Source of the DNA: Euryarchaeota archaeon SM23-78
Lineage (GTDB): Archaea > Nanobdellota > Nanobdellia > Woesearchaeales > SM23-78
DNA: 64,000 nt
Direction: 5' to 3'
Assembly: GCA_001595785.1 (NCBI GenBank)
Contig: LSSJ01000002.1
Coordinates: 22,224 to 86,223, forward strand
Shown here: positions 10,900 through 27,834 of the stretch, one piece after another
Layout of the letters: each line of letters begins with the position of its first letter
Numbering within the stretch: the stretch's first letter is position 1
Notes under the pieces: model-generated
Database searches by the model: none
Told to the model about the DNA's origin: nothing
What the model saw: the letters and a program-made list of their open reading frames with translations, nothing else
Position numbers and translations under genes: made by a program

Positions 10900-11943
10900 A
10901 TGGGAGAGGATGCAAAAGATAAAGAAGAGAATGTGTTCATCACAAAAGATGAGAATAAGATAAGCAATCTCTGGGAATTAAGGGATTTTCTTAGCAAAAC
11001 GTCTGATGAAATTTTTACTCGTTATGTTAATGAAGAAAAGAATGATTTTGAGAGTTGGATAAGACACTCTTTAAAAAATCAGGAACTTGCAGACCTTGTA
11101 AGAAAAAAGAAAACCAGAGAAGAGACTGTCCAGATAATTGATTACTTCTTGACCAAGCAAGAACTTGAGAACCCAGAGTCAGAGTTAAGAGAAGAAGAAA
11201 TACCTGAGGTAGAACGAATCAGAATTGGAGTGCCTGGCTTTGACCAACTAATAACTGAGGGCATCCCAAAAGGAAGTTCTGTACTCATAAGCGGAGGCCC
11301 AGGAACTGGCAAGACAACCTTTTGTTTACAAATAATAAAAGAAGCAACTGAAAAAGGAGAAAAATGCCTATACTTAACCTTTGAAGAAGCCCCATTAAAG
11401 CTTAAGCAGCACATGAAGAGTTATGGCTGGGATCCTATCCAGCTTGAAAAAGAAGGCTCATTGATAATAAAAAAGATGCGGCCCTTTGACCTAAGCAGGT
11501 CTGTCGAGGCACTGCTGGCCAAGGCTAGTGGCGAGCTCACAATTGAACTCGATGAAATAGAAGGAGTCATTCCAAAGGATTTTAAGCCTGACAGGATTGT
11601 TCTTGACTCATTATCATCAGTCGCTGCTGCTTTTATTGGCAGAGAAGAAGGTTACAGGATTTATATTGAGCAGTTATTCACTCTTTTTAAGAGTATAGGA
11701 GCAACCTCTTTTCTTATAACAGAAATAGAACAAGAAACATCTAGGTATAGCAGGAGTGGTATTGAGGAATTCCTAGCAGATGCTGTTTTTGTTTTCTACA
11801 ACATTAGAAAAAAGAATGTAAGACTTAATGCCTTGGAAATCCTCAAAATAAGAGGAACCCTTCATCAGAAAAAAATAGTTCCATTTAAGATAATCTCAAA
11901 TCAAGGAATAGTTGTTTACCCACAGGAAGAGGTTTTTACTTAA
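10900..11943 (+). CDS. KaiC-like RecA-superfamily ATPase (single domain) with ~100-aa N-terminal extension
   Basis: Walker A GGPGTGKTTFCLQ. KaiC-like blocks KCLYLTFEE..YGWD, RIVLDSLSS, ATSFLITEIEQE, LADAVFVFY...LKIRG. GAGGTG 8 nt upstream of the ATG. The N-terminal extension shares a module with the C-terminus of 37893-38822. Confidence 0.8.
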   Translation: MGEDAKDKEENVFITKDENKISNLWELRDFLSKTSDEIFTRYVNEEKNDFESWIRHSLKNQELADLVRKKKTREETVQIIDYFLTKQELENPESELREEEIPEVERIRIGVPGFDQLITEGIPKGSSVLISGGPGTGKTTFCLQIIKEATEKGEKCLYLTFEEAPLKLKQHMKSYGWDPIQLEKEGSLIIKKMRPFDLSRSVEALLAKASGELTIELDEIEGVIPKDFKPDRIVLDSLSSVAAAFIGREEGYRIYIEQLFTLFKSIGATSFLITEIEQETSRYSRSGIEEFLADAVFVFYNIRKKNVRLNALEILKIRGTLHQKKIVPFKIISNQGIVVYPQEEVFT

Positions 11944-11951
11944 TCAGTCAA

Positions 11952-14900
11952 ATGTTAAATAAAAAGTTTTTAAACAAAAATATATGTTATCACATCATTA
12001 TTTTAGTTTTAGGAATACCTCTTCTTTTTCCTCTGATAAATGCATTAACAGGTAACTACTCAACAACATCTCCTTTTAGCTGTGGAGCTAATTGTAATTT
12101 GGGGTATGAGCTTTCTGGTCATAACGCAACTTACTGTTACAACAATCCTGTTGAATGCTACAACACAATAGACACTTGTAGAGATGGAACTAATGATGGA
12201 TTTGAATTTGTTAACAACATATTCGTAACAGACCTTAATGATACCAACTTTATAGGAGGCCACACAGTAAATGTAACCGTAGAGTTTGACTGTGACAGTG
12301 ACGGTGATACAATAACTATTTCGTATCATAATGGAACCAGTTTCAGGGTAATACAAGATGACACTTGCTCTGTTGGTGCTTTGGTAAACAAATCATATAG
12401 CTTTGTCCTGGATGAAAATGGAGGAAACCACACAATTAGGGCAGTAATAGTTTATAACGGCGGTACCAACATGATTTGTGGATATAACTATGATACTACT
12501 TTTTCTGACACTGATGATGTTACTTTTTATGTAATTCAAGGACCAGATACTGAGAACCCAAAAGTAAGTGGTGTTAGTCCAAGCCCAGGAACTTCTTATA
12601 ATCAGAACTATGGTTTAATTATACCAATATCTGCTAATATTACTGATGATAGAAATATTAGTATTGTACAGACTCTTGTGGAATGGGATTCATATACTCA
12701 TAGTATCAATCTCGGACATATTAGTGGAAACCTTTATTCAGGAAACTTCACCAATATTACTGAAGTGACCCTTTACAATGTGACCATAATAGCAAATGAT
12801 AGCTCTAATAACATGAACAATACTGAAACCACTTATTTTACAATAAACTCTACAACTAACATTACTATTGTTTCACCTAGCAACAGGCAGGTGCTTCCTT
12901 ATGGAGACATAAACCTCAGATTCACAATTGACTCTGGTTATAACACAGATAAAGCAAGGTACTCTATAGATGCTGGAGCAAACATAACTTTAAATGCAAA
13001 TGACAAATTAAGAGTAAGCTTTATCCAATCAGACCAGAATGCTACAATTGGAGAAGCTGATAATGTATATGACAATCTTTCAATGTCTTTCATACCAACC
13101 GAAAATATGAGCATTGAGTTAGTGGCTATTAGTATTAAAAGGAACGACTCAGGAACTCCTAATTCTCAACTACAGGTAAGAACTGACAGTGGAGGCAGTC
13201 CTTCAAATACAATTCTTGCTACGGGTAGTATTACTAACACCTCTGTTACAGCAAACTACTCCTTTGTAAATATAACCCTTAACACCACGATTAATCTTGC
13301 TATAAATACAACTTACTGGTTGTTTCTGACTCCAAATGGTTCAGCAACTAATTTTTATACTTGGGAGAAAAGCAATGACGGCTTATATGCAAATGGTAAT
13401 TACAGTAATAACAACAGTCTTGACTTGCTGTTCAGAGTGTATGACAGATACAAATATAATACAACTCTTACAAATGTTTCAAAAGGAACACATAAGATAT
13501 TGATCTATGCTAATAGTACAAACATGAGCTCAATAAAATCCCAACTTATCCAGTTTGAAGTTGACAATAGATCACCTAGCATAGGAGCAGTAACATATGT
13601 GCCAAACACAACAGCAGATATGGATCCAAGTATAATGATAAATGTAAGCGTGAATGTGAGTGATGAAGTAGGAATTGTACAAGTACTGCTTCAATATAAG
13701 GAGAGCAATGAAAGCGCTTATCTGAATAATAGTATGCAGAATATAAGCGGAGTATATAAAGGGAATTTTACACCCAACTTTGAGAATAATTGGACTTTTA
13801 GAATCTATGCAAAAGACAGTTCCAACAATACAGCTTATTCAAGTGCAAATATAATAGGGGTTTTATATGAGTACTCTTGGAACCGAACTCCTTCAAGTTT
13901 TAACACAATATCATCTTTCCTTAACACCAACACGACTGTTGGCAATATAACCATTAATAACACGGCAGACATTAACCTGACTATTAACATTTCAAAAACA
14001 ATTTCAACAGTGCCCAGCTTATACTTTAACAACACAAAAGGAAGTCTGGTATTTAATGTGGATTCTGGTAGCACAGCCACTATTAGCGTGACAGCCACGG
14101 GTCAGAGTATTGAATCAGAACAAGAAGTAGGGATAAGAATCGATCCAAGCCAGCCTAGTGCAACACCAGATTACTTACTAACTAACTTTACTTTTATATC
14201 GTATGTATCAGGACCCTACCTTGATATTGATATCACTGAATACGACTCCACAGTAATCCAAGGACAAAAAAGAGTGAAATTAACAGCAACTATCATAAAT
14301 GTAGGTAATGAAAGTGCAAATAATGTTAATGCGCACTGGACCTTGCCAATAGGATGGAATGCTAAGACTAATTTTACAGCCAATTATTCATCTCTTGGAG
14401 TTGGCCAACAAGTAAGCTTTACAAGATATGTTGATATTGGTTCAAGTGCAAGCACAGGCACACAGACCATTAGAATAGATATAAATTGTTCAGAAGGAAA
14501 AAACAGTACTGATTCCAAGAGCGTGAGCGTGAGCAGTAGTGGGGGACAAACTCCAGGCATCATCACCCCAGGCGGGGGTGGAGGTGGTGGAGGTATTATT
14601 TCTGCAGAAATAAGTAAACTAGACATTAGAATTTTGGAGGAAATAGAGATTGAAAGGGGTACCAATTACACCCTGACTGGAACTCTAAAAAATATTGGTG
14701 AATATGATTTAGAAAATTTAAGTATTATCCTTAGTGGATTTCCAATAATACATTACAACATAAAACCTAGTATTATTGACAAACTAAAAGTAAATGATAC
14801 CCAGTTATTTACATTGTTCCTTAATGTGCCTGAATACTTTGGAGGTGGAAAACACGAGACCATCCTTGATGTAAAAACTCTTGCAGGAAATGCGTGGAAA

Positions 14901-15809
14901 GAGTTCAGCAAGAAGATAATTATTATTGTTATCACAGAGGACAAGAAGCAGGCACTTGAATGTGTAGAAAAAACCCAACTAAAGATAGATGAATTACAAA
15001 GTATCGGCTTGAATACTGTAAAATTAAACCAAAAATTAGATGATGCAAAAAGAAATTATAATATCAAGAATTATGCAGATGCAAATAACCTTTGTAAACA
15101 AACATTAAGAGATGCTGAGCTTGCTTTTGATTTAAATGACAGAATAGCCTCTATTAAAAAGGCTTATGCTGAGCTAGAAACAGATATCCCAGAAATAAAG
15201 GAGTTAATCCAACTTATGCAAGAGGCCTTTGAGAGAGAAGATTTTGTCTTGGCGAACACCAGAGCAGAGCAAGCAGAGTTTCTGCTCAGCCTCAAAGAAA
15301 AAGAGATCCAGCAAACCCTACCGTATAAATGGGGGTTGGTAAGAAAGTATTGGGTACAAATAACAGGTGTTTTAATAATGTTAATAATAATAGGAATCTT
15401 TGCTTATTCGTCAACAAATCTTAAGGCAGTAACAAAAAGAATCAAGAACTTGGAAAAACACCATGGCGCGGTGCATAACAAAATAAAGGAAGCGCAACAT
15501 AAGTATTTTGTTAAGAAAGCCTTACCTTCAAGACTTTATAAAAAAGAAATGGAGCATCACAGAAACAGCCTAGCAGATATTGAGAAGAAAAAGCATGAAT
15601 TAAAGATTAAGAGGTTAAAAATAATTAGTGGACGCAGACTTAAAGACTTGGAAAAAACAAGACAAGAAGCTGATGAAAGTAAGAAAGAACTTCACAGGAA
15701 ATATTATGTTCACAAGACAATTGATAAGCAGACTTTTCACAAGCTTAAACTGGGTTTTGATAAAATCATACAAGATATTGAAAAAAGGATTGAGTTGAAA
15801 AAGAAGTAA
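11952..15809 (+). CDS. Large sequon-rich surface protein with C-terminal TM helix and cytoplasmic coiled-coil tail
   Basis: N-terminal hydrophobic segment. Long Asn/Thr/Ser-rich ectodomain with a G8 stretch. TM GVLIMLIIIGIFAYS near the C-terminus followed by a charged coiled-coil tail. 8-nt gap after the KaiC-like gene suggests an operon. Confidence 0.65.
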   Translation: MLNKKFLNKNICYHIIILVLGIPLLFPLINALTGNYSTTSPFSCGANCNLGYELSGHNATYCYNNPVECYNTIDTCRDGTNDGFEFVNNIFVTDLNDTNFIGGHTVNVTVEFDCDSDGDTITISYHNGTSFRVIQDDTCSVGALVNKSYSFVLDENGGNHTIRAVIVYNGGTNMICGYNYDTTFSDTDDVTFYVIQGPDTENPKVSGVSPSPGTSYNQNYGLIIPISANITDDRNISIVQTLVEWDSYTHSINLGHISGNLYSGNFTNITEVTLYNVTIIANDSSNNMNNTETTYFTINSTTNITIVSPSNRQVLPYGDINLRFTIDSGYNTDKARYSIDAGANITLNANDKLRVSFIQSDQNATIGEADNVYDNLSMSFIPTENMSIELVAISIKRNDSGTPNSQLQVRTDSGGSPSNTILATGSITNTSVTANYSFVNITLNTTINLAINTTYWLFLTPNGSATNFYTWEKSNDGLYANGNYSNNNSLDLLFRVYDRYKYNTTLTNVSKGTHKILIYANSTNMSSIKSQLIQFEVDNRSPSIGAVTYVPNTTADMDPSIMINVSVNVSDEVGIVQVLLQYKESNESAYLNNSMQNISGVYKGNFTPNFENNWTFRIYAKDSSNNTAYSSANIIGVLYEYSWNRTPSSFNTISSFLNTNTTVGNITINNTADINLTINISKTISTVPSLYFNNTKGSLVFNVDSGSTATISVTATGQSIESEQEVGIRIDPSQPSATPDYLLTNFTFISYVSGPYLDIDITEYDSTVIQGQKRVKLTATIINVGNESANNVNAHWTLPIGWNAKTNFTANYSSLGVGQQVSFTRYVDIGSSASTGTQTIRIDINCSEGKNSTDSKSVSVSSSGGQTPGIITPGGGGGGGGIISAEISKLDIRILEEIEIERGTNYTLTGTLKNIGEYDLENLSIILSGFPIIHYNIKPSIIDKLKVNDTQLFTLFLNVPEYFGGGKHETILDVKTLAGNAWKEFSKKIIIIVITEDKKQALECVEKTQLKIDELQSIGLNTVKLNQKLDDAKRNYNIKNYADANNLCKQTLRDAELAFDLNDRIASIKKAYAELETDIPEIKELIQLMQEAFEREDFVLANTRAEQAEFLLSLKEKEIQQTLPYKWGLVRKYWVQITGVLIMLIIIGIFAYSSTNLKAVTKRIKNLEKHHGAVHNKIKEAQHKYFVKKALPSRLYKKEMEHHRNSLADIEKKKHELKIKRLKIISGRRLKDLEKTRQEADESKKELHRKYYVHKTIDKQTFHKLKLGFDKIIQDIEKRIELKKK

Positions 15810-15832
15810 TAAAATAAAAAAAGAGGTGAAGA

Positions 15833-17188
15833 GTGAAAGCAATATATATCCTTAAAATACTACTTAAAATATTACTAACCTTAATATTACTAAACTTGGC
15901 AGTAAATCTTTCTATAGCAAAAGAAGAACAAGAACTAAGAACAGAGCTTCTGAAATTAAGTCAGGTAAAGGAGGAAATGATAGCTGCAGGTATGGGCACA
16001 ACCAGAATTGATGATTTAATTACAGAAGGGTTTATACACTTTAATAACAAGAACTATGAAAAGACAAAGGAAATAGTATCCTCTGTTTATGAGTTAAGAG
16101 ATGCTGCTTTCAATATAAAAGAGGAGCTCAAGTTTGTCAACCAGCTTTATCTTGATATTAGAGAGAGAAACATCAGCCTAGGTGATATGAGTATCACCAA
16201 GCTTGAATGGGATTTGGGTTATGTTGAACGAGAGATGGAAAAAGAGAACTATGAAGAGTCATTAGAAATACTGGCAAGGGTAAAAAAAGAATTTCTCGAT
16301 ATTATTTGGAAAGAGTATGACTATCTTAATGAATCTGTTTCAGTAATTGAAGAAAAAATAGGTTTGTTAGGGCTAAGCAAGGCAAGAATAACTACCTTAA
16401 AGAGTCTGTTATCTGAGGCCTTGGAAACAGGAAAACTAAAGGAACTAGAGATTATTAAACAAGAAACAATGGATTTGAATAAGGGCCTGGCTTATTATGA
16501 AGAAATAAAACCATTTATCCCTGTTTTGGAAAGTAAAAACCTTTCTGCGCAGAGGATAAAAGATGAACTCACAGCTGCTGAACTTGAACTTAACTTTGCT
16601 GATTATGAGTCTAGCCTTAGCAGGCTTGAAAGTCTTAGAACTTTGGCAGAGAAAGCTATTCTGCTTGATGAAGAGATTAATGAACTTGAGAAAAAGATTG
16701 TTGATGAAAAAGTCAAGCAAGGATCAAATTCTTATTTAAAAGAAGCAGAAATCATTTTAAAAGAAGCAAAACATGAATTGATTGTTGGAAATTATGAAGG
16801 AGCAGAACAAAAATTGGTTAGTGCAAGAACAAATTTTGAGAGTTTAAAAGCAGAGTTTCTTGTTGAAAGAGCAGGCGCCACTAGTTTTGGTATCAATTTA
16901 AAAGAGTTTGTAAGAAAAAACTGGCTATATATAGTGCTTGTAATCTTAGTAATCCTCTTAGGGCTTAAGTTAACCTCCGGGGCATGGTCTTATGGTTTAG
17001 GAAAAAAAAGAATTGCAAGACTAGAGAAAGAGCTCAAGGTTAATGAGAATATGATTCAGAACCTTCAAAAAGACTATTTTGTTCACAAGAAAATGGCAAG
17101 AGAGAGTTATGATGAGGCGTATGAGTCATTGCAGGAGAAGATAATGAAAATAAAAGATAGGTTATCCCAATTAAATAAGAAGGTTTAA
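15833..17188 (+). CDS. Coiled-coil membrane protein (signal peptide, long helical ectodomain, C-terminal TM, charged tail)
   Basis: GTG start with AGAGGTGA upstream. N-terminal hydrophobic segment. TM LYIVLVILVILLGLKL. Tail organisation resembles the tail of 11952-15809. Confidence 0.55.
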   Translation: MKAIYILKILLKILLTLILLNLAVNLSIAKEEQELRTELLKLSQVKEEMIAAGMGTTRIDDLITEGFIHFNNKNYEKTKEIVSSVYELRDAAFNIKEELKFVNQLYLDIRERNISLGDMSITKLEWDLGYVEREMEKENYEESLEILARVKKEFLDIIWKEYDYLNESVSVIEEKIGLLGLSKARITTLKSLLSEALETGKLKELEIIKQETMDLNKGLAYYEEIKPFIPVLESKNLSAQRIKDELTAAELELNFADYESSLSRLESLRTLAEKAILLDEEINELEKKIVDEKVKQGSNSYLKEAEIILKEAKHELIVGNYEGAEQKLVSARTNFESLKAEFLVERAGATSFGINLKEFVRKNWLYIVLVILVILLGLKLTSGAWSYGLGKKRIARLEKELKVNENMIQNLQKDYFVHKKMARESYDEAYESLQEKIMKIKDRLSQLNKKV

Positions 17189-17236
17189 AAAAGGAAAGAA
17201 TAACTATATTTATTACCTCTGCAGAAGGTAAAAAAA

Positions 17237-17764
17237 ATGGATTTAATAGAAGAAGTAAAGAACAAGCAGATTGTTCTGGTAGTTCTTCCAAAAACCCAGT
17301 ACACAAATAAACTAATAGAAGTAGTCAAAGCAGTTGATGTTGTCTCAAACAAGGTTTGCTATGTATGCCTAAATAAGCCTTATAACAGCATAATAGATAA
17401 TCTTAAAGCCAACAACTTGGACTTGGATAAGTACTTCTTTATTGATGTGCTTACGAGTACTGTGAAAACTCCTGAGCCGACTGATAACTGCGAGTTTGTA
17501 CAGTCACCTAGTGCTTTGACTGATATAAGCCTTGCATTTACAAAAGCAGTGCAGGAAATGAACTGCAACAATGTATTGTTCGATGCAATCTCAACACTTA
17601 CAATCTACCAAGACATAGGAGAGATTATCAAGTTCACCCAAAACCTGATGACCAAGGCAAGAGTGAGCGGAGTGAAATCAGTATATATAGCCTTAAAAGA
17701 AGATAGCGACGAATTAGTGAAGGATCTTACCATGTTTGTTGACGGGGTTGTTGAGTTAGGATGA
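17237..17764 (+). CDS. Walker-A-less KaiC/RecA-fold domain protein (pseudo-ATPase); paralog of 23717-24262
   Basis: KVCYVCLNKPY...DNLKANNLDLD aligns to KaiC KCLYLTFEE...GWD. VLFDAISTL aligns to RIVLDSLSS. DGVVEL aligns to the KaiC DGVI.L block. No GxxGxGK[TS] P-loop. Sits immediately upstream of the Ser/Thr kinase. Confidence 0.55.
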   Translation: MDLIEEVKNKQIVLVVLPKTQYTNKLIEVVKAVDVVSNKVCYVCLNKPYNSIIDNLKANNLDLDKYFFIDVLTSTVKTPEPTDNCEFVQSPSALTDISLAFTKAVQEMNCNNVLFDAISTLTIYQDIGEIIKFTQNLMTKARVSGVKSVYIALKEDSDELVKDLTMFVDGVVELG

Positions 17765-17788
17765 GCTACATTCTACTAATTTTATGCT

Positions 17789-17909
17789 GAAATCTTGTCC
17801 GTCGGCGCCATTGTTTGCATTAGCTACTTTGTTTTTGTAGCTATGCAAAGGCCCGGCGAAGCTTTGTGAGCAGTTTAATAGCGAACAAAGCGGAGTAGGA
17901 CAAGATTTC
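17789..17909. repeat. MITE-like structured repeat, copy 1
   Basis: Perfect 12-bp terminal inverted repeats gaaatcttgtcc / ggacaagatttc. Internal palindrome tgcattagctac...gtagctatgcaa. Shares module gcgaa.caaagc.gagtagg with the copies at 37.6 and 44.1 kb. Confidence 0.55.
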
Positions 17910-17993
17910 AATAATGATTTTATAGCAAGGTTTTTATAGTTTAAATACCCTTCTCTTTTGGAAGGGGTGGGAATACAGGGAAAGGATGCAACA

Positions 17994-20411
17994 ATGGTAG
18001 AAGACATTCTCAAAAAGGAGGATAAACTTTCACCCGGCTATGTTCTAGGAAACAGGTATGAGATATTAGAAGAAATAGGCTTTGGAGGCATGGCTCGTGT
18101 TTATTCTGCTCATGACAAAAAACTTAAGAGAATGGTTGCACTAAAAGTTCTTGACAAAAAATTTTACATGAACGAAGAGTATGTTAAAAGATTTAAAAGA
18201 GAGGCTGAATCCATAGCTAAGCTAGACCATCCAAACATTGCTGAAGTGTATGATATTGATGAACTTGATAATAGGCTTTATATATCCATGAAATATATTC
18301 AAGGAAAAAGCCTTGATAAAATATTAGAGGAACACCACGGATTCTTTGATATAGAAACAGGGTGTGGGGTTGGGCAGAAACTTCTTGATGCACTAACACA
18401 TGCACATAGCCAAGGAGTTATTCATCGTGATATAAAACCGAGTAATGTGATGATTACAGGAGATGCCTGCTTTACATGCGAATGGGACCTTAAAATCTTG
18501 GATTTTGGTATTGCAAAAATACTGGATGATGAGACAATTCATACCCAGTTAACTCAGTACGACACAAGACTGGGCACACCTGAATATATGTCTCCTGAAC
18601 AGATTGATGGCGAGGAAACAACTGGAAAAGAGGATGTTTGGTCAACAGCTGTTATGCTTTATGAAATGCTTACAGGAGGAAGACTGCCTTTTGGTATTGT
18701 AAGAGAGATGAAGTATACAAAGAAGACAAAACAAATAGCATTGGGAGAACTGAAAGGACCACGAAGTATTAACAGTCAGATACCTAAGAATTTAGAAGAT
18801 GTTATTTTGAAAGGGCTTGAAAGAGATATAGATAAAAGGTATGATGCAAAAGAAATGCTTGAGGATATAACCAAATTTCTAAACAAAGAGGAATTTATTG
18901 TTGAAGGAAGTAAAGAAAGAAGAGTTGAGGTGTATGGTAGGCGAGAGTTCTTAAAAAGGATCATCTTATTCGGAGGTGCAGGATTGAGCGTATTAGGAGG
19001 ATCAAGTCTGATAATAATGAATCATATTGATAAGAAAAATTCATTATATCCAACATTTGAAAAGATAAAGAAAGCATCAACCTGGGAGGATTTAAAACCT
19101 ATAATGAAAGAGGTAAGAAACAAGAAATTCAGGTGGGTTCTTAAAAGGTCAAAACATATAAAAAAAGATCCTTTGCAAGACGATGCTACATTTGCGCCTT
19201 TTTCATTTAAAGAAAATAAAGTAGATTATACAGATAATTTGCATTATGGATCTCAGCTTATGAGAGATATTTATGAAATGGGATTTATAGAAACAGGCAA
19301 CCCTGACTTTTTAGAGCAGTTTATAAGGCTCTATGATTTAACCGATTTCAGTAAAACACGCACCTATAAATGTTACTTAGACAGATTTAAAATAAGCTGG
19401 GAAATGTTTCAATTTATGGAAAAAAATGGGTTCAAAGAGACTGCTGGGCTATTAAAAGAGAAAATGGGTTTTGCTGTAGCTGCGCAATTAAAAGAGAGGT
19501 ACCATAAAACTGGGTTCTTTCAGTACTTAAATCCTAGGGATAAAACTTCTACCAAACAATTGCTGCTTGTATACACGCAGATGCACGCAATACCGTTATT
19601 GACTGAAGGCATAAAAATATTTAATCTTGAGAAAGATTTGGGAATAGACCCTGAAGAATATATTAATGCTATAAGAGAGCAAACAAAAACATCAAATAAC
19701 TTGTTGATAGGAAAGGATAATGGGGTGCATTTTGGAGTGTATTTTAATCCATTTACCAAAGAATTAACACAGCTTCTTTTTGAAGCAAAATATGAGATAA
19801 AGGCGTACAGGTCGGATAATATAATCAAGTATCTTAGAGAAGGTTTGGAACCTGTGATCTGGCTGTATTCTACTATTGAATCAGTAGTTAACAGAGATAT
19901 TAAAGGAAACAGCATACAAACACAACTTCAAGAGAATATTATGAAGATATTTCCACAGTATTTAAAAGAAATAAATCAAGCAAAAGTAAAGTTAATCCAA
20001 TCATTTACAAGAATACTGAAGTTTTATAGAAATCATTTAAACAAGAATGGTTTAATTCCAGAGTTTCTTCCTGTTGAAGGTGAACCTATTGAAGGAGACA
20101 ATCCTTTAAACCTGGCATCCACATTTACCTATTTCACCTTTATAAATGATGTGTTAAACAATAAGAGCGTGATGACTCAATACTTACCGCAGGAGATAAA
20201 AAGACAACTTTCCAAAGAAAGAATAACACTGGCTAAAGTAATATATCAAAAGAGCTTTTTTAATAATAAGTTTGATTCATCTAAAAATTTATCTTTCTTA
20301 AAGAATTTGAATTATGAAGAAGAAAACAATAAAAAAGACATGGATAAAGAAGAAAACAAACCAGCCTTGATATATGTTCAAGATGAAAAAGAAGTTCTTA
20401 AAATAAAATAA
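17994..20411 (+). CDS. Hanks-type Ser/Thr protein kinase with TM helix and ~450-aa C-terminal domain of unknown function
   Basis: GFGGMARVY, ALKVL, HRDIKPSNVM, DFGIAK, GTPEYMSPE. TM ILFGGAGLSVLGGSSLIIM after the kinase domain. The track ORF opens with TTG at 17958; ATG at 17994 chosen as start. Confidence 0.8.
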   Translation: MVEDILKKEDKLSPGYVLGNRYEILEEIGFGGMARVYSAHDKKLKRMVALKVLDKKFYMNEEYVKRFKREAESIAKLDHPNIAEVYDIDELDNRLYISMKYIQGKSLDKILEEHHGFFDIETGCGVGQKLLDALTHAHSQGVIHRDIKPSNVMITGDACFTCEWDLKILDFGIAKILDDETIHTQLTQYDTRLGTPEYMSPEQIDGEETTGKEDVWSTAVMLYEMLTGGRLPFGIVREMKYTKKTKQIALGELKGPRSINSQIPKNLEDVILKGLERDIDKRYDAKEMLEDITKFLNKEEFIVEGSKERRVEVYGRREFLKRIILFGGAGLSVLGGSSLIIMNHIDKKNSLYPTFEKIKKASTWEDLKPIMKEVRNKKFRWVLKRSKHIKKDPLQDDATFAPFSFKENKVDYTDNLHYGSQLMRDIYEMGFIETGNPDFLEQFIRLYDLTDFSKTRTYKCYLDRFKISWEMFQFMEKNGFKETAGLLKEKMGFAVAAQLKERYHKTGFFQYLNPRDKTSTKQLLLVYTQMHAIPLLTEGIKIFNLEKDLGIDPEEYINAIREQTKTSNNLLIGKDNGVHFGVYFNPFTKELTQLLFEAKYEIKAYRSDNIIKYLREGLEPVIWLYSTIESVVNRDIKGNSIQTQLQENIMKIFPQYLKEINQAKVKLIQSFTRILKFYRNHLNKNGLIPEFLPVEGEPIEGDNPLNLASTFTYFTFINDVLNNKSVMTQYLPQEIKRQLSKERITLAKVIYQKSFFNNKFDSSKNLSFLKNLNYEEENNKKDMDKEENKPALIYVQDEKEVLKIK

Positions 20412-20424
20412 AAATATAAAAAAT

Positions 20425-20628
20425 TTAAGGACTTCCAGGTGGCTGACAAAGCGGGTCATCGTCAGGGCAGCCTTCGAATGATACTACCTTTCCAAAGCCT
20501 TCTGGTGTTATAGTCGGTGCTTCACTAAGACTTTCGGTGTTCTCGCTTTCCATCAGGAAAGCTCCACCTACACCCAATAGCAAGGCGCAGACTAATAGAG
20601 CTACAGCTACTACTACTATTTTATTCAT
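20425..20628 (-). CDS. Small secreted or lipoprotein-like protein (67 aa)
   Basis: Internal ATG at 20628 preceded by GGGGGTGAAAAT. Signal peptide MNKIVVVAVALLVCALLLGVGGAF. The longer track ORF (20425-20772) has an implausible N-terminus. Confidence 0.4.
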   Translation of the reverse strand: MNKIVVVAVALLVCALLLGVGGAFLMESENTESLSEAPTITPEGFGKVVSFEGCPDDDPLCQPPGSP

Positions 20629-20781
20629 ATTTTCACCCCCATATTGGGACGAAAATAAGAGCTTATTCTTAAAGGCTTCTGAGAAAACAGGATAAAAATC
20701 AGCTTTTTTTATCCAAGCATTATCAATCACAAAGAGATAACACAAAGATTTATAATAAAAAGAAAATATCACTTTTTAGGG

Positions 20782-22296
20782 ATGGTAAAAAAGAAAGTGC
20801 TAGAAAAGTTGATAAAAGAAAAAGATGAAGAAATAGCAGAATTAAAAAAAAAGGTTGAGAAATATAAAAAAGAAGCTATTGCTAATAAGTCAGAAGCTGA
20901 AGCATATAAATCACAATTAGAAGAACAAAAAATAATTAACCAAGAGCAACAAGAGTTGATAAAAGAGTATGAAGAAGAACTAGGAATAGAATCTAAAGAA
21001 GGAAAAGTAACAACAATAATTGGCCACTTGTCTAGAGCAAGCCATTATCTTTTTGAAACAAAAACACCTGATAAAGCAACACCTCATCTAAGAAAGAGCA
21101 TTAAATTAGATGATCAAAAAATTGTTCGATTAGATAATCTGACCAAGAAAAAAGAAATATCTGTATTTTTATGTAAGGCTAGAGATGGAAAAACTTTAAT
21201 CAGGCTAAACCGGCCAAAAGAAAAAGAGATTATTGAATATGGACTTACATTAGAAAATGCGTTGCTAATGGTTTATCCAAGTGCAGACATGGCAAACGCA
21301 GTGTATAAGGTATATAAAAGAACGCTTGAGGATAAAAATAATAAGCCGACTCGAGAGACTCCAAATCTTTGTGAAAAAATACAAGCCCAGGAATTTCTCT
21401 TGGAAAAAATTATACCTATTTCATATTTAACTCCAAATGGTCTGTTTAGTCTTTTTCATTTGATTGAAAGCAAAGATTTCTCCTCCCATATAAAAAAAGC
21501 ATTTATCGAGTCTCTGATTAAAAAACAGCTCAGAGATGTCGCATATCTAAGAACCAGAGAGTATGGCTTTGATAAAAATCTTATCATTAATTCTTCTCAT
21601 GGAGATAAAATGCTTGAGGTTTATGATGAAGCAAAAATATCTTTAACACCTAAAGAAAAAAGAAAAATTAAGGAGGCAGGAAAACTTATTGATGAAAGAG
21701 CGAACCATTCTTTTGTAGATGGTGCTTCTTGGAATTCCTTTCCTCATAAAATATTAGTAGACAGTTATTTTCATAACAAAGTAGCTAAAATGATTTCACA
21801 AGAAATAATAGATTATAATGAACTAAATAATGAAATAGAAGAGTTGGTAAAAAAGCACACTTATCGAATTGATCTTGATAAAATGGTAAGATTGACTTTT
21901 CCATCAGACGATGCAATACATACTTTGGAATGGCCAGTGCCCATATTACTTCCAAGTGAGAGAATAAGGTATGAACAATATTTTGTTGAAAAACTTTCTG
22001 AACATGGAGAGGATACAGAACACTACTGGGATTTAAGGGCGTTAGAAGGGTTTTATAGGCACATAAGAATGTGGTTCTTTTACAGACAAAACCCTGATAA
22101 CTATCCTGATCCTGAGGATGTATACAAACAGCACCATTTGAATATGTCTTTTTACAGCATTTATATACACACCTTTGGAAGAGGACCACCAAAAAAAGAG
22201 ATGATCAATACTAATCTTAGGAAAGGATTAGAATTAATGATGCATCCCAACTGTAGACCCCAAGCAATCAAATATCCTATTAATTATGCTGAATAA
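20782..22296 (+). CDS. Hypothetical protein with N-terminal coiled coil
   Basis: 504-aa ORF with a K/E-rich heptad N-terminus. No recognisable catalytic motif. Its 3' end overlaps the convergent gene 22234-23151 by 63 nt. Confidence 0.5.
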   Translation: MVKKKVLEKLIKEKDEEIAELKKKVEKYKKEAIANKSEAEAYKSQLEEQKIINQEQQELIKEYEEELGIESKEGKVTTIIGHLSRASHYLFETKTPDKATPHLRKSIKLDDQKIVRLDNLTKKKEISVFLCKARDGKTLIRLNRPKEKEIIEYGLTLENALLMVYPSADMANAVYKVYKRTLEDKNNKPTRETPNLCEKIQAQEFLLEKIIPISYLTPNGLFSLFHLIESKDFSSHIKKAFIESLIKKQLRDVAYLRTREYGFDKNLIINSSHGDKMLEVYDEAKISLTPKEKRKIKEAGKLIDERANHSFVDGASWNSFPHKILVDSYFHNKVAKMISQEIIDYNELNNEIEELVKKHTYRIDLDKMVRLTFPSDDAIHTLEWPVPILLPSERIRYEQYFVEKLSEHGEDTEHYWDLRALEGFYRHIRMWFFYRQNPDNYPDPEDVYKQHHLNMSFYSIYIHTFGRGPPKKEMINTNLRKGLELMMHPNCRPQAIKYPINYAE

Positions 22297-23151
22297 ATAA
22301 GGATATAATGACTTCTCACCAGAACTAAATTTGGTTTCTAAGAGTTCTTGTTTTAAGGATTTAATCTTCTGTCTCATTCTTAGCAGTTCTTTATCAGAAT
22401 AATTATAGAAGAAACGATAATAGTTTTCAAACAAATCATTTATTTGAGAGTAGATATCTTGAACATCAAGACTTATTTTAAAAGTTGGTTTATTAAGGAT
22501 AATATTTATTATATCCCTGTAATCATCACATATGCTCTCAATAACCCATATTATAAGATAGGTATATGTTGTCTTATCATCTTTATAGGGTTTCTTATTA
22601 AGCAGTCTTTGGCAGTAGTTGGTAAGCTTGTTAATAGTTTGTTCAAGAACAAGTACTTCTTTAAGTTTATCAGTGCTTTCCTCTCTTAGCCCGTCTAAAC
22701 TATTCTTTGCAAGGGAAAGGGCTACTAAGAAGATTCTTCTAACCAAGGTATCTAACTCTGATAAATGGTCACCGGAAACTGCCTTTACAACGCAGAGGTT
22801 GCCTTTTTGCTCTGTTATTTCATACCCCATTAGCATGGTGTTAATTCTTTCTTGTATTATTTTAATGGTCTCAGGATTGTTAAAGGTTATCTCTATCTCG
22901 TCATAACCAGATTTGTGGAGCACAGAAAGGATGCTATGAATAGCTCCCCAGTTAGTGTCTGAGAAATCAGCTTTAGTCTTTTTGATTAGAAGATGCTCTT
23001 GTCCTGGATAAATCGTTAGTACTTCTCCTTCATCATCAACATTAAGTTCATCTCCTTTCTTGATGTTGTTGGTTTTGACCCATTTTGATGGTAGAGAAAC
23101 TGTTAGGGTTGAAGGCCCGTGCAGAATTACTTTTCGCTTAATCTTAACCAC
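22234..23151 (-). CDS. AbrB/SpoVT swapped-hairpin domain fused to a PhoU-like helical domain (archaeal PhoU-type regulator architecture)
   Basis: N-terminus KVILHGPSTLTVSLPSKWVKTNNIKKGDELNVDDEGEVLTI is a typical AbrB/SpoVT fold signature. The remainder is alpha-helical with two similar halves. Confidence 0.55.
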   Translation of the reverse strand: MVKIKRKVILHGPSTLTVSLPSKWVKTNNIKKGDELNVDDEGEVLTIYPGQEHLLIKKTKADFSDTNWGAIHSILSVLHKSGYDEIEITFNNPETIKIIQERINTMLMGYEITEQKGNLCVVKAVSGDHLSELDTLVRRIFLVALSLAKNSLDGLREESTDKLKEVLVLEQTINKLTNYCQRLLNKKPYKDDKTTYTYLIIWVIESICDDYRDIINIILNKPTFKISLDVQDIYSQINDLFENYYRFFYNYSDKELLRMRQKIKSLKQELLETKFSSGEKSLYPYLFSIINRIFDCLGSTVGMHH

Positions 23152-23347
23152 CCCCTAAGCATGACTGAGAAAAGGGTCCTTATATAAATATCTTTCTAAA
23201 AATATACATATGTATATAATGTGATAAAAAAGTATATATAACCAATTTGTGATAATTTATCCTGAAAAAAAATTAGAGGTAAAAAACAGTCCTAATTTAT
23301 CCAAAATATAATTTAAAAAGAATTCAAAAAACAAAAGGGTGAGAATT

Positions 23348-23668
23348 ATGGGGAGCATAATAAGTTCAAGAAGAGAAGATGCGAAGGTGGTTGTAGAAGC
23401 AGCACTAGATTATGAAGAGCTGGTTCAGCTTAGAGGGGAGATAGATAATGTCCACTTATTCTCGGAAAAGGTAGCTGATTTAGAGACTAATATATCAAGC
23501 AGAGGAAAGAATGAAGCCACTAAATACTTCTTAATACCAAGGCATCTGAGAAAAGATTTGAGCATAAGAGAGCCTGTAAGCTGCCAGAGAATAAACACAC
23601 CTGATAAAGCAATCTTTGTATATGTGGTTAACAGAAATGTTTTTCATGGAGTTAAAAAGCTAAGGTAA
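23348..23668 (+). CDS. Small hypothetical protein
   Basis: ATG at 23348 has AAGGGTGAG 7 nt upstream. The track ORF opens with GTG at 23339, inside that ribosome-binding site. Confidence 0.4.
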   Translation: MGSIISSRREDAKVVVEAALDYEELVQLRGEIDNVHLFSEKVADLETNISSRGKNEATKYFLIPRHLRKDLSIREPVSCQRINTPDKAIFVYVVNRNVFHGVKKLR

Positions 23669-23716
23669 AACAGAAGAGTAAGAGAGAATATGCTAATGGA
23701 CCAAGGGTGACTAAAA

Positions 23717-24262
23717 ATGGAATTCTTATTAGGGATAAGTGAGAATAAATTTGTTCTTATTCTTCTTAAAAGCAAAAACTACTTAGAAGAGCTGCACAAG
23801 ATGATAAAAGAGGTAAAGAAACATCACACAAAAATATGCTATGTATGTCTCTCAAAGCCATATTCAGAGGTGATTGACAATCTTAAAAATGAGAGAATAA
23901 ACTATGAGCATTTTATCTTTATAGATGTTATTAGCAGTCTTCACTACAAGCTCAAACCAGTCAAGAACTGCATCTTTGTTACAGGCCCAGAGAACTTAAT
24001 AGAACTAAAAAAAGCTATAAAAAGGGCAGTAACTAAGAATGAATGCGAAGCAGTAATCTTTGATACAATATCAACCCTGCTCATATACCAACAGACTCAT
24101 TCAATAATAAGATTCACACATGAACTTATAATTGATAAAGACCAAAGCACAATAAACAAGGTATATGTAGTCTTAAAGGAAAAAGGGATTTACAGAAATG
24201 AAAGCGCAAAATTAATAAAGGACCTCAACTTATTTGCGGATAAGACAATCGAAATGAAATAA
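23717..24262 (+). CDS. Walker-A-less KaiC/RecA-fold domain protein; paralog of 17237-17764
   Basis: KICYVCLSKPYSEVIDNLKNERINYEHFIFIDVISS versus KVCYVCLNKPYNSIIDNLKANNLDLDKYFFIDVLTS. AAGGGTGA upstream of the ATG. Directly upstream of the receiver-domain gene. Confidence 0.55.
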   Translation: MEFLLGISENKFVLILLKSKNYLEELHKMIKEVKKHHTKICYVCLSKPYSEVIDNLKNERINYEHFIFIDVISSLHYKLKPVKNCIFVTGPENLIELKKAIKRAVTKNECEAVIFDTISTLLIYQQTHSIIRFTHELIIDKDQSTINKVYVVLKEKGIYRNESAKLIKDLNLFADKTIEMK

Positions 24263-24323
24263 ATAAAAAAAGAAACAAAAATATAAAAATATAATTAATT
24301 TGATAAAAAAAGGAGTTCGTAAA

Positions 24324-24692
24324 ATGCCTAAGACAATAATGATAGTGGATGATGAGCCTCACATGGTAGAGCTAGAAAAAGCCATCCTTGAAGCAGAAGG
24401 GTTCAAAATAATAAGTGCTTTGGATGGAAAGCAAGCATTAAAAATCCTTGAGACAATCAAGCCAGACCTCGTAATCCTTGATATGATGATGCCAGGCATG
24501 TCAGGCAGAGAGGTGTGCGAGAAGATAAGAAAGAATCCTAAGACAAAGAAGCTGAAAATAATATTTGTAACAGTTGCCAGGTTCTCAGAGATTGGTAAGA
24601 ACCAACTCAAAGGCATGGATGTTCTTGATTATATCACCAAGCCCTTTGATAATGAGGAGTTAGTGAAAAGGGTAAAAAAGATTTTAGGATAA
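24324..24692 (+). CDS. Stand-alone CheY-like response-regulator receiver domain
   Basis: IMIVDDEP, conserved phospho-acceptor context VILDMMMPGMSG, KPF motif. AAAGGAG 8 nt upstream of the ATG. Confidence 0.8.
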   Translation: MPKTIMIVDDEPHMVELEKAILEAEGFKIISALDGKQALKILETIKPDLVILDMMMPGMSGREVCEKIRKNPKTKKLKIIFVTVARFSEIGKNQLKGMDVLDYITKPFDNEELVKRVKKILG

Positions 24693-24705: not shown

Positions 24706-25491
24706 TTAAATCTCTTTTTCTTTTACCTCCATTACTTTCTCCTTTATTTGACGTTGTACTCTCTTAAAATACACTAGCGCATATATCACTAGGAAGAACA
24801 TGAGATACCACAAGAGATCAATATACTGCTTTCCTAAAGCATAGATTTCATAGTTCTGAACATACCACAAATCAGCTATCAGAGTTGAAATAATTCCTAG
24901 ACCTATGAGAATCCAGCCGAGTGATAGCTTACCAGAGATTAATGAATAAGACAGGAATATTAAGGGTATGATTAAGAGTAGGTCTGCAATCACATAACCA
25001 CTTGTTACAAGGTTTTCTATGAATGATACTTCAAGGTCCCATGCAAAAGGAAAGAAATACAGGTAAACTCCTACAGCAGCTATTGTAATCAATACTAAAA
25101 ATATTATTCTCTTCTTGTTCTTGAATATATCAGGAGTTGACATCTTTATCCCATAAAATATGCCAATCATCAGGAACGGGTAGGTTAAAAGATAAGCAAC
25201 ATCTGCAAATGAGACAACAGCTTCTTCATAAATTATCCATAAGATTTCTCCTACCGTCCAACAGAAGAAGCCAATGGTTAGGAATAGGATTGCTTTTCCT
25301 TGCAAACTCCTAGTTCCAAACACTTTAGCCAAATAAACACCCAGGGCTACTGTTATTAAAGGTAATCCTATGGTTACAATATAAGTGAACATATCAAATA
25401 CTGTTTCTGCTCCTGGCTCAAATATATACATAAGAACTATTGCAACAAAACCAAGTATTAATAATATTAAAACCCAATCTATTCTTTTCAT
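24706..25491 (-). CDS. Polytopic integral membrane protein (about 7-8 TM helices), unknown function
   Basis: Hydrophobic helices throughout. 4-nt overlap (ATGA) with the upstream small gene 25488-25715. Confidence 0.55.
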   Translation of the reverse strand: MKRIDWVLILLILGFVAIVLMYIFEPGAETVFDMFTYIVTIGLPLITVALGVYLAKVFGTRSLQGKAILFLTIGFFCWTVGEILWIIYEEAVVSFADVAYLLTYPFLMIGIFYGIKMSTPDIFKNKKRIIFLVLITIAAVGVYLYFFPFAWDLEVSFIENLVTSGYVIADLLLIIPLIFLSYSLISGKLSLGWILIGLGIISTLIADLWYVQNYEIYALGKQYIDLLWYLMFFLVIYALVYFKRVQRQIKEKVMEVKEKEI

Positions 25492-25746: not shown

Positions 25747-27834
25747 TTATCTCTTTATATCCTTTTCTACTTTTAATTTTTTCTTTTTCTCTTTCTTCAT
25801 CTTGAATACTTCTAAACGCTTCTCCTCCATGAGGAGTTTGGATTTTATAGGCAGGGTGAAGAAAAAAGTTGTTCCTTTACCAATCTGGCTCTTAAGCCAT
25901 ATCTTTCCACCCATAGCCTCAACCATGCCTTTGCATATGGCTAACCCAAGACCAGAGCCAACAGCTTTCCTGGTATATGAAGAATCAACCTGGTAAAACC
26001 TTTCAAATATCTTTGAGAAGTACTTCTTCTTAATCCCAATACCCTCGTCCTTCACAGAGAAAAGGATTTGTTCTTCTTGCTTTGAAGCAGACACAAAAAT
26101 TTTCTTATTTTTCTTAACAGTGTACTTCACAGCATTATTAACCAGGTTGACTAGTATTTGAATAAATCTGCTTTTGTCAGTAACAAAGTTTTGAGGTACA
26201 TTATTTGCAACATTTGCTTTTAGAGTTATTCCTTTCTTAGCAGCCAAGAGATACAACTCCTTAACAAGGCCCTTGAAAGCCTCCCTGATATCTGTTTCTT
26301 CAAACACAAACTTCAGAGTGCCAAGATCAATCCGGGAAAGGTCAAGGATGTCATCAATCAGCTTCTTAAGCCTCATAGAATCCTCTATGATAATGCTCAA
26401 GTAATAATTTCTTTGCTCAGGATTAGCCATGATTTTCTCGTTCTTAAGAAGCCCTGCAAAGCCATGGATAGAAGCAAGAGGAGTCTTAAGCTCATGAGCA
26501 GTCATGGATATGAACTCGTTCTTGTACTCATCCATCCTTTTCAATTCAATATTTGCCTTCTCCAATGCCTCATTAAGCTTAATCAAATCCTTCTGCGATT
26601 TCTCAAGATCCCCCTTTGATATACTAACATCCTCAAGCATGTTAAGAACGGCAGTTCTTGTGTCCTCAAGCTCCTTTACCTTTTTTTTCAGCTCTTCTGT
26701 TCTTTTTTCTACTAATTTTTCTAATTCTCTTTCGTGCCTTCTTATTTTTTCATGAGATTCTTTTAAATCCGTGGTCATCTGATTAAAAGTATCAGCTAAA
26801 TCGCCAAGTTCATCTTTAGAAATTATTTTAATCTTGTAATCCAAGTTCCCCATCCTAACTTCTTTAACTCCTTCTTGTAAATGGGTAACTGGTTTCAATA
26901 ATTTTTTAAAAACAATTATTAAAAGGACAGCTATGAATAGAACAAACAAAATAATTGAAAGCCCGGCAAGAAAAAGAAGTGTTGATAATTCTTGAAATAT
27001 TTCTTTTACAGGTAATTCTACTATTACGCCCCAGCCAGTAGTGTCAATTGATTTCCAGTTACCAATAACCTTTTCGTTATTAAAAGAGGTATAAGTTTCA
27101 GACGTGCGAATATTATTCAAAAAATTTTTAACTCCTTGAATCTGTTTCAAATCTAAATTTTCCATAACCAGACTTATGTCTTTATATGCTATAAGCCTTC
27201 CTCTTTGGTCTACAACATAAATATATCCTGTTTTTTTAACTCTTATTTTAGAGGTGGTATCCCACATCGGGCTTAAATCAACCTCAGCATCCAGAACTCC
27301 GATTATAGTATCATTTTCATCCTGTATTGGTGAACTAATTGAAATAAAGGGTAGTTGATACTCAGAAATATAAATGGGGCCTAAATAATAATCTTCTTCA
27401 AGTGCTTTCTTAAACTTCTCCTGAGCAGAAACATCTTTTAATTCTGAAGATGTTTTCGGGTCATGTCTCACAATTTTAGTTATTTCATTTCCTTCTATAT
27501 CAATAATTGAAAGAGAATAAATACTAGGATTATGTCTAAGTAAATTTTTTAAACTTCTAGTGTTTAAATCTTTTTCAAAGCGATTGGTTTTACCAATTTC
27601 TTCACTAAATAATTTCAATTCACCAAGAATATTTTTAATATAATAATGAATTTCAGAACTAGCTTTAACTGAAACCTCTTCTTGAACTTCTTGTATAGAA
27701 TTCATGTGTGCACTAAAATTATAATAAATTAAGCTTGTAATTAATATTAAAGTAAAAAAAGAAATTATTAAGTACGGGATTATTAATTTTAATCCTAGTC
27801 TACCAGATATTACTTTGATTTTCTTTTTTTCCAT
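25747..27834 (-). CDS. Sensor histidine kinase: TM, ~270-aa extracytoplasmic Cache-like domain, TM, HAMP, HisKA, HATPase_c
   Basis: H-box FISMTAHELKTPL. N-box LVNNAVKYT. G-boxes DEGIGI and GSGLGLAICKGMVEAMGG. HAMP after the second TM. Confidence 0.85.
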   Translation of the reverse strand: MEKKKIKVISGRLGLKLIIPYLIISFFTLILITSLIYYNFSAHMNSIQEVQEEVSVKASSEIHYYIKNILGELKLFSEEIGKTNRFEKDLNTRSLKNLLRHNPSIYSLSIIDIEGNEITKIVRHDPKTSSELKDVSAQEKFKKALEEDYYLGPIYISEYQLPFISISSPIQDENDTIIGVLDAEVDLSPMWDTTSKIRVKKTGYIYVVDQRGRLIAYKDISLVMENLDLKQIQGVKNFLNNIRTSETYTSFNNEKVIGNWKSIDTTGWGVIVELPVKEIFQELSTLLFLAGLSIILFVLFIAVLLIIVFKKLLKPVTHLQEGVKEVRMGNLDYKIKIISKDELGDLADTFNQMTTDLKESHEKIRRHERELEKLVEKRTEELKKKVKELEDTRTAVLNMLEDVSISKGDLEKSQKDLIKLNEALEKANIELKRMDEYKNEFISMTAHELKTPLASIHGFAGLLKNEKIMANPEQRNYYLSIIIEDSMRLKKLIDDILDLSRIDLGTLKFVFEETDIREAFKGLVKELYLLAAKKGITLKANVANNVPQNFVTDKSRFIQILVNLVNNAVKYTVKKNKKIFVSASKQEEQILFSVKDEGIGIKKKYFSKIFERFYQVDSSYTRKAVGSGLGLAICKGMVEAMGGKIWLKSQIGKGTTFFFTLPIKSKLLMEEKRLEVFKMKKEKKKKLKVEKDIKR

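Follow-up and report, generated by a model that had tools for sequence, protein, structure and literature searches.

The window analysed here, 64,000 nucleotides of Euryarchaeota archaeon SM23-78 (GenBank assembly GCA_001595785.1, contig LSSJ01000002.1, positions 22,224 to 86,223 of the forward strand), derives from a DPANN archaeon with a G+C content of approximately 35% and encodes two small proteins on the plus strand, iK1 (17237-17764, 175 residues) and iK2 (23717-24262, 181 residues), identical to the database entries AYK26_03815 and AYK26_03845 of this organism. We consider it probable, albeit with some reserve, that iK1 and iK2 are stand-alone inactivated KaiC-like domains (iKaiC) representing two old paralogous clades of a family here called iK, and that they act as non-catalytic adaptor subunits of a KaiC-like signalling hub. 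The gene for iK2 forms a conserved pair with that of a CheY-like receiver (REC; 24324-24692), while iK1 lies at the 3' end of an operon that also encodes an active KaiC-like ATPase (10900-11943) and two membrane proteins, BIG (11952-15809) and CC (15833-17188). A preliminary description of this DNA had placed the open reading frames (ORFs) of the KaiC-like ATPase, iK1, iK2, REC and a Hanks-type kinase (17994-20411) correctly, and had proposed that iK1 and iK2 are adaptors paired one-to-one with the kinase and the receiver, respectively. As regards gene linkage, the receiver half of that proposal was borne out in 27 of 59 loci; the adjacency of iK1 and the kinase is confined to one subclade.

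AlphaFold2 models built from a 58-sequence alignment had a predicted local distance difference test score (pLDDT) of 95.0 and a predicted TM-score (pTM) of 0.90 for iK1, and a pLDDT of 88.8 for iK2. When these models were compared by Foldseek with the Protein Data Bank (PDB), PH0284 (2dr3) ranked first for both proteins with TM-scores of up to 0.74 (the query-normalised value for iK1) and E values of 1e-7 to 3e-7, followed by KaiC, FlaH, PH0186 and RecA/RadA. PH0284 was also the sole significant match in a sequence-profile search of the PDB (hmmsearch E 0.004) and is thus the nearest solved structure. PH0284 and PH0186 are stand-alone archaeal KaiC-like proteins; the PH0284 chains comprise 232-247 residues versus 175-181 for iK1 and iK2, and PH0284 was deposited as a RecA-superfamily ATPase, whereas iK lacks the P-loop. 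With 37% identity to each other (67/180; BLASTP E 9e-44), somewhat below the value of about 45% first estimated by eye, iK1 and iK2 are paralogues.

Profile alignment by hhalign of the iK family to 28 active KaiC ATPases encoded at the loci of its members (90.7% probability, E 1.3e-6) located the catalytic losses. Because CYVCLNKPY of iK pairs with CLYLTFEEAP of KaiC, the catalytic Glu-Glu has become N-K; the segment VLFDAISTL aligns with IVLDSLSSV and retains the Walker B Asp, which is invariant in the family, and FVDGVVEL aligns with LADAVFVF. The P-loop position reads VVLPKTQY, and a Walker A motif was present in none of the 58 iK members versus 26 of the 28 neighbouring KaiC ATPases. The strand at which the iK proteins end is aligned with residues 198-205 of a KaiC domain of 247 residues. 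They are thus short of approximately 40 C-terminal residues and terminate before the K-x-R-G motif of KaiC, which they lack. Models and alignments thus identify iK1 and iK2 as proteins of KaiC/RecA fold that have lost the catalytic motifs, in agreement with their first recognition as P-loop-less KaiC folds, and the alignments extend the inactivation beyond loss of the P-loop.

No curated Pfam or NCBIfam model captures this family. iK1 and iK2 scored 24.4 and 17.8 bits, respectively, against Pfam KaiC (gathering cut-off 26.6), and 15.7 and 21.3 bits against DUF835 (PF05763; cut-off 33.1). DUF7504 (PF24336; cut-off 27) matched iK1 with 28.1 bits over the C-terminal half only, and the Pfam search returned no DUF7504 match for iK2. 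Among the 58 members, weak matches were obtained to KaiC (49 members), DUF835 (40), DUF7504 (24), the Elp5 model Elong_Iki1 (20) and ELP6 (2), with most members below the gathering scores of the first three models. Against NCBIfam ArlH/FlaH iK1 scored 15.6 bits (cut-off 194). In a profile search of 1.84 billion representatives of a 50%-identity library, the number of clusters was 2,515 at E 1e-3 and fell to 1,593 at 1e-10. Naming this family of some 1,600 clusters, which the curated models miss, would lead to better annotation of many DPANN genomes. Almost all iK proteins are 170-200 residues long; the rare longer ones are coiled-coil fusions or tandem iK-iK proteins. Database annotations assign the relatives of iK1 and iK2 to Woesearchaeota, Nanoarchaeia, Aenigmatarchaeota and Iainarchaeota/Diapherotrites.

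In the 58-member alignment (numbering of iK1), Y42, F68, the Walker B residue D116 and D163 are invariant, and C41, C85 and C110 nearly so. The conservation of the cysteines and of D116 is what would be expected if iK were a sensory input domain, perceiving a ligand, a metal or redox state through a remodelled pocket or the cysteines and signalling to the receiver or histidine kinase. There is a precedent in MEDS (PF14417), a domain of iKaiC type for which small-molecule binding is predicted and which is listed in both histidine kinases and response regulators (PMC5847659). However, no ligand-binding motif was identified in iK, the model places the cysteines in core beta strands or next to them, where their role may be purely structural, and the histidine kinase of this locus already possesses dCache, binding-protein and PAS inputs. 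We therefore regard a MEDS-like sensory role as quite unlikely, and return to the adaptor reading, for which gene order is informative.

Gene neighbourhoods were surveyed in 59 loci (denoted by L numbers) taken from one-genome-per-species contigs and annotated with profiles seeded by proteins of the window. REC lies directly 3' and on the same strand for 28 of 80 iK genes, in 27 of the 59 loci (binomial P 2e-15, given that REC accounts for 5.6% of genes in the surveyed loci), with gaps of -1 to 178 nt and a median of 44.5 nt. These loci span Woese-/Nanoarchaeota and Aenigmatarchaeota. In a rough neighbour-joining tree, the iK2 clade comprises 29 members, 24 of which are followed by REC. The iK-adjacent receivers form one orthologous group, with a median identity to the REC of the window of 66%, compared with 45% for the iK partner. 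At 98.9 bits to PF00072, and with the VDDE, LDMMMPG (D53), FVTVA and ITKPF motifs in place, the 122-residue REC (plus strand) is, by sequence, a canonical stand-alone CheY-like receiver, as first described. The distance of less than 100 bp that had been given for both small genes to their signalling neighbours is correct for iK2-REC (61 bp) but not for iK1 and the kinase (229 bp). Together, these data establish iK2-REC as a deeply conserved and meaningful pair.

A histidine kinase gene is convergent on 20 of the 28 iK-REC pairs. In the window the convergent genes, all on the minus strand, encode a 7-transmembrane protein of 261 residues between REC and the histidine kinase (24706-25491; identified by topology), a sensor histidine kinase with the domain architecture dCache-HAMP-HisKA-HATPase (25747-27834; domain search) and, upstream of and co-directional with the latter, a periplasmic binding protein (27859-29046) and a multi-PAS protein (29043-30380). 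The module consisting of iK, REC, a 7-transmembrane protein, a HAMP histidine kinase, one or more binding proteins and a PAS protein recurs in Aenigmatarchaeota, where homologues of the 7-transmembrane protein occupy the equivalent position in five loci (L006, L007, L022, L025, L033) and an equivalent set of binding and PAS proteins is found in L006 and L007. Upstream of iK2, at 48 bp, lies the ORF of the small protein p109 (23339-23668, plus strand), the homologues of which adjoin iK or KaiC genes in L019, L037, L050 and L062. V4R-domain proteins also flank iK genes, in the order V4R-iK-iK-BIG-CC-histidine kinase in L004 and L005 and REC-V4R-histidine kinase in L001, which suggests a further small-molecule-binding input to the iK module.

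One locus carries a fused gene. In L057 (5968-6924), from the Aenigmatarchaeota metagenome-assembled genome AUK155, a single ORF of 318 residues at the syntenic position joins an iK part (residues 8-176) to a REC orthologue (residues 201-313; 59% identical to the REC of the window). Metagenome contigs with 80 loci contained 22 split iK-REC pairs and no fused one, and no iK-REC fusion was found among the 150 best family representatives or 120 profile matches. As the fusion was not reproduced in the 22 related metagenome pairs, we give it little weight.

The conserved context of iK1 is a tight operon of KaiC ATPase, BIG, CC and iK1, not the kinase. In the window, the gaps between consecutive genes of this operon are 8, 23 and 48 bp. 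The order BIG-CC-iK is kept in L001-L003, L008-L014, L067 and L068, and the full order KaiC-BIG-CC-iK is retained down to 63% iK1 identity. BIG orthologues adjoin iK genes in 17 of the 59 loci, and BIG is also followed by iK in Aenigmatarchaeota loci (L021, L023, L029, L058); the recurrent context is a large membrane protein of 1,100-1,460 residues, often accompanied by a coiled-coil membrane protein, and then iK. A KaiC ATPase gene lies within 6 kb of iK in 40 of the 59 loci, and in Iainarchaeota loci the KaiC gene directly precedes iK, the two being approximately -4 to +9 nt apart. BIG (plus strand, 1285 residues) is a type-I-like surface protein with an N-terminal transmembrane or signal segment, an NPCBM_assoc domain, 59 N-x-S/T sequons, a C-terminal transmembrane segment (residues 1129-1147) and, beyond it, some 140 residues of cytoplasmic tail. 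CC (plus strand, 451 residues) has a signal segment, a transmembrane segment at residues 360-378 and likewise a cytoplasmic tail. The tails of BIG (15393-15806) and CC (16967-17185) share the motif [KR]xY[FY][VI]x[KR], with two copies in BIG (HKYFVKK, RKYYVHK) and one in CC (KDYFVHK). Across all fetched loci the motif occurs in 22 ORFs, 18 of which are BIG or CC and carry it in their C-terminal tails; it is a candidate docking site for KaiC or iK proteins.

The first gene of the operon (10900-11943, plus strand) encodes a single-domain protein of 347 residues that matches Pfam KaiC (PF06745) with 179 bits, above the gathering cut-off of 26.6 bits, and shows the motifs GGPGTGKT (Walker A, position 132), IVLDSLS (Walker B), FEE (161) and KIRG (316); its early assignment as a single-domain KaiC-like ATPase is confirmed. 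It has one domain and scored 148.9 versus 408 bits and 114 versus 546 bits against the circadian KaiC models NF006799 and TIGR02655, respectively. On this sequence evidence it is KaiC-like and not a clock KaiC. Its N-terminal extension of about 100 residues (10900-11200) weakly matches DUF5752, and a neighbouring KaiC paralogue in L067 (1-939) displays the same combination of a DUF5752-like extension with KaiC.

The operon could also be read as encoding machinery that assembles or anchors a structure on the cell surface, built of KaiC, iK1, BIG and CC and merely regulated by the two-component system. In the archaellum, ArlH works with the coiled-coil protein ArlX, and CheY regulates the archaellum. 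Consistent with this comparison, BIG and the giant proteins encoded at 1377-5129 and 5104-10719 carry Ig-like/CARDB domains of adhesin type, CC is a membrane coiled-coil protein and FlaH/ArlH is among the structural neighbours of iK1 and iK2. Yet the cluster showed no ATPase or platform protein of the ArlI/ArlJ type, no pilin and no archaellin, and the KaiC ATPase scored far below the cut-off of the NCBIfam ArlH model (46.6 versus 215 bits). A surface-assembly machine is for these reasons a quite unlikely explanation of the operon.

The kinase that follows iK1 (17994-20411, plus strand, 805 residues) matches Pkinase with 183.8 bits and contains VALK at 48, HRD at 144, DFG at 170 and SPE at 200. 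Its motifs agree with its original description and make it a Hanks-type Ser/Thr kinase with a catalytic core predicted to be intact. The protein is of the receptor type, with a cytoplasmic kinase domain, a single transmembrane segment (residues 323-341) and, on the extracytoplasmic side, a C-terminal domain of some 460 residues to which no family was assigned; the ATG at 17994 is backed by orthologue N-termini. The kinase opens a block consisting of kinase, a small ORF, p504, an AbrB/PhoU protein and p109, which lies between the two iK paralogues in one subclade only. p504 (20782-22296, plus strand) had no family match in domain-family searches and travels with the kinase block; p504 and the AbrB/PhoU gene are syntenic in L001, L008, L009, L050, L062, L067 and L068. 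The AbrB/PhoU protein (22234-23151, minus strand, 305 residues) combines an AbrB/MazE-type DNA-binding domain (PF04014, 33.8 bits) with a PhoU-like region (weak match) and is likely, from its domains, a transcription regulator.

As first proposed, each iK protein would be the dedicated adaptor of the signalling gene next to it. In favour of this, the window has iK1 beside the kinase and iK2 beside REC, the evidence for iK2-REC is strong, and iK1 is followed by the kinase in L001, L008, L009, L010, L067 and L068. The kinase link is confined, though, to iK1 orthologues at least 73% identical (73-83%). The entire block is absent in L011, L012 and L013: in L011 (74% iK1 identity) a REC orthologue directly follows the iK1 orthologue, and in L012 (72%) and L013 (63%) a second iK and then REC follow. 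The adjacency is missing at these identities, and a one-to-one partnership between iK1 and the kinase is unsupported. Moreover, iK1 is packed into its upstream operon, and the 229-bp spacer before the kinase contains a TATA-like element, AGCAAGGTTTTTATA (17924-17938, plus strand). It is found about 45-60 bp before the kinase ATG in the window (about 55 bp) and in L001, L008, L009, L067 and L068, and is followed by a conserved leader, GGTGGGAAT. From its sequence and position, AGCAAGGTTTTTATA is probably the kinase's own archaeal promoter, with a B recognition element (BRE) and TATA box. Given this conserved promoter-like element and the 229-bp spacer, the kinase is probably a separate transcription unit; its pairing with iK1 is lineage-specific and probably not operonic. 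A conserved Ser/Thr is also lacking at the iK position that matches the KaiC phosphosites, where the consensus is KDLxMFADK. All this renders the dedicated-adaptor explanation unlikely for the two proteins taken together. That iK might be a kinase substrate was considered and found to be unsupported, the site matching KaiC S431/T432 being variable in the 58-member alignment.

The same spacer contains a structured insertion of 123 nt (17788-17910), with a minimum free energy of -56.8 kcal/mol, a z value of -6.2 and an inverted repeat that forms a perfect closing stem of 13 bp. Relatives do not have this insertion, their iK1-kinase spacers being shorter by about 100 bp. The window holds a single copy, and neither the fetched loci nor metagenome contigs scanned for exact 30-mers contained a match. 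The insertion could represent a small RNA or an insert resembling a miniature inverted-repeat transposable element (MITE).

One further explanation is that the cluster serves anti-virus defence, with a PD-T4-6-like or MADS-like kinase and a mad8-like KaiC ATPase. The kinase does match the PADLOC models PD-T4-6 and mad6 (up to 275 bits), and the KaiC ATPase has a weak match to mad8 (32 bits). The kinase matches are nevertheless confined to the generic kinase domain; PADLOC yielded nothing for iK1, iK2, BIG, CC, p504 or p109; no methyltransferase or nuclease partner was seen; and the conserved partners are two-component signalling genes. With PADLOC returning only generic kinase and P-loop matches, we rejected a defence system as highly improbable.

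The fold, the loss of catalytic motifs and the conserved gene order are observations, from which we infer physical interactions and a direction of signal flow along the following lines. The convergent dCache-HAMP histidine kinase, accompanied by the binding protein and the PAS protein, would phosphorylate REC. Since REC has no output domain of its own, it would act through iK2, by binding or releasing it. iK2 would in turn dock on rings of the KaiC-like ATPase and so link the dCache histidine kinase to the KaiC hub, and iK1 would most likely form a joint assembly with the KaiC ATPase at the tails that BIG and CC extend into the cytoplasm. The Hanks kinase, p504 and the AbrB/PhoU protein would constitute a separately transcribed block inserted between the iK genes in one Woesearchaeal subclade; the kinase may feed the same hub, without being a dedicated partner of iK1. 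Indirectly, such an adaptor mechanism is suggested by gene order, by adjacent KaiC-iK pairs, by tandem iK-iK proteins (compare double-domain KaiC) and by published iKaiC-REC fusions.

Several points weigh against the adaptor mechanism. Gene adjacency is compatible with iK2 acting downstream of REC, as its output, or upstream, as an input or as a scaffold of the histidine kinase. The A-rich spacer between iK2 and REC in the window could hold a promoter of its own. The L057 fusion, absent from the 22 related metagenome pairs, could result from a lost stop codon or an assembly error. With the Walker B Asp and the three cysteines conserved, iK may have kept a residual, non-canonical binding of nucleotide or ligand. 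Finally, the kinase block is kept with iK1 in most members of its subclade, where a functional link may exist.

Inactivated KaiC-like domains in signalling are not new. The term iKaiC, for "inactivated KaiC-like ATPase domain", is listed among the output domains of response regulators by Galperin et al. 2018 (PMC5847659), who credit its description to Makarova et al. 2017 and tabulate iKaiC-REC in Methanosarcinaceae, REC-DUF835 in Methanomicrobia and Thermoplasmata, and MEDS-REC in Thaumarchaeota; ABE53050 and AFV24814 are examples of the first two forms, respectively. The published iKaiC domains (PF06745-divergent, DUF835, MEDS) and iK share the KaiC/RecA fold, the loss of ATPase motifs and an association with receivers and histidine kinases, which in the iK family is an association with REC by gene adjacency; both are proposed to be non-catalytic parts of a KaiC hub. 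As iKaiC-REC-type proteins have already been published (PMC5847659), the earlier suggestion that the present locus extends the KaiC-hub picture is overstated. There are also differences. The published forms are fusions, whereas iK is a separate protein of about 180 residues beside a separate REC gene; the published forms occur in Methanomicrobia, Thermoplasmata and Thaumarchaeota, and iK in DPANN (Woese-/Nano-, Aenigmat- and Iainarchaeota); and iK, unlike published iKaiC, has a second clade tied to a KaiC ATPase and large membrane proteins. iK is therefore a new, large, stand-alone DPANN family within a known class of inactivated KaiC signalling proteins, not a new principle. The same survey notes that REC-only regulators dominate unfinished DPANN genomes and does not mention a KaiC-type neighbour (PMC5847659), and our literature search found no other paper joining KaiC, DPANN and response regulators. 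The stand-alone family in DPANN, its pairing with REC as split genes and the KaiC-BIG-CC-iK operon thus appear to be undescribed.

Three better-known systems offer more distant parallels. In cyanobacteria, KaiC output passes through the histidine kinases SasA and CikA and the response regulator RpaA, so that there, as in the iK modules, a KaiC fold is coupled to a histidine kinase and a receiver. Bona fide KaiC is, however, a double-domain active autokinase and ATPase, whereas the ATPase of the window is single-domain and iK1 and iK2 are dead; neither KaiA nor KaiB was seen. In the archaellum, the KaiC-like protein ArlH acts together with ArlI, with ArlX, a coiled-coil membrane protein, or ArlCDE, and with CheY/CheF. 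Like iK1 and iK2, it is a small single-domain KaiC fold, FlaH (4yds) being one of their structural neighbours, and a membrane coiled-coil partner and CheY-type input occur in the same neighbourhood; unlike them, ArlH keeps Walker A and binds ATP, and no archaellum genes lie nearby. Elp4/5/6 and the Rad51/RadA paralogues are subunits of RecA fold with weak or no activity, from which hetero-oligomeric rings or filaments are assembled, a non-catalytic co-assembly such as we propose for iK. Their likeness to iK, seen in the weak Elong_Iki1 and ELP6 matches, is distant and at the level of the fold only; their roles differ (tRNA modification, recombination) and their genomic context is not homologous.

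Response regulators of DPANN archaea mostly consist of a receiver domain alone, with no known output (PMC5847659). A conserved dead-KaiC partner provides a concrete and testable output for them, and the iK-REC pair would connect two-component signalling of the bacterial type with the KaiC hub of archaea in very small genomes. More speculatively, and with little confidence, one may picture a membrane-anchored KaiC/iKaiC machine of DPANN archaea in which BIG and CC, as giant glycosylated surface proteins, recruit the KaiC ATPase by their tail motif through iK1, and iK2 attaches REC to the same ring and, in some lineages, the receptor Ser/Thr kinase as well. Such a machine would mean outside-in signalling, possibly controlling the attachment of host-dependent cells, that is built on KaiC-fold subunits and not on DNA-binding response regulators.

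Contigs L010, L015, L037 and L062, which carry the Woesearchaeal-type cluster, are recorded as 'uncultured Methanosarcinales archaeon'; given their gene content, this label is probably a binning or taxonomy error. Rfam and tRNA scans of the window gave zero matches. Upstream of the operon, the plus strand from 1377 to 10719 encodes giant surface proteins. Their domains are Ig-like, CARDB and Big, and their N-x-S/T sequons are very numerous (169 in a protein of 1871 residues). Beyond the multi-PAS gene, overlapping minus-strand genes at 30495-31701 encode a HEPN protein (210 residues) and a nucleotidyltransferase (207 residues), typical of a HEPN/MNT toxin-antitoxin pair. The region from 56.6 to 64 kb had been considered as a gene-free anomaly; this was rejected, as a single further giant ORF of at least 2,400 residues, not listed among the ORFs because it is open at one end, occupies the plus strand from about 56638 to 64000 and runs past the end of the window.

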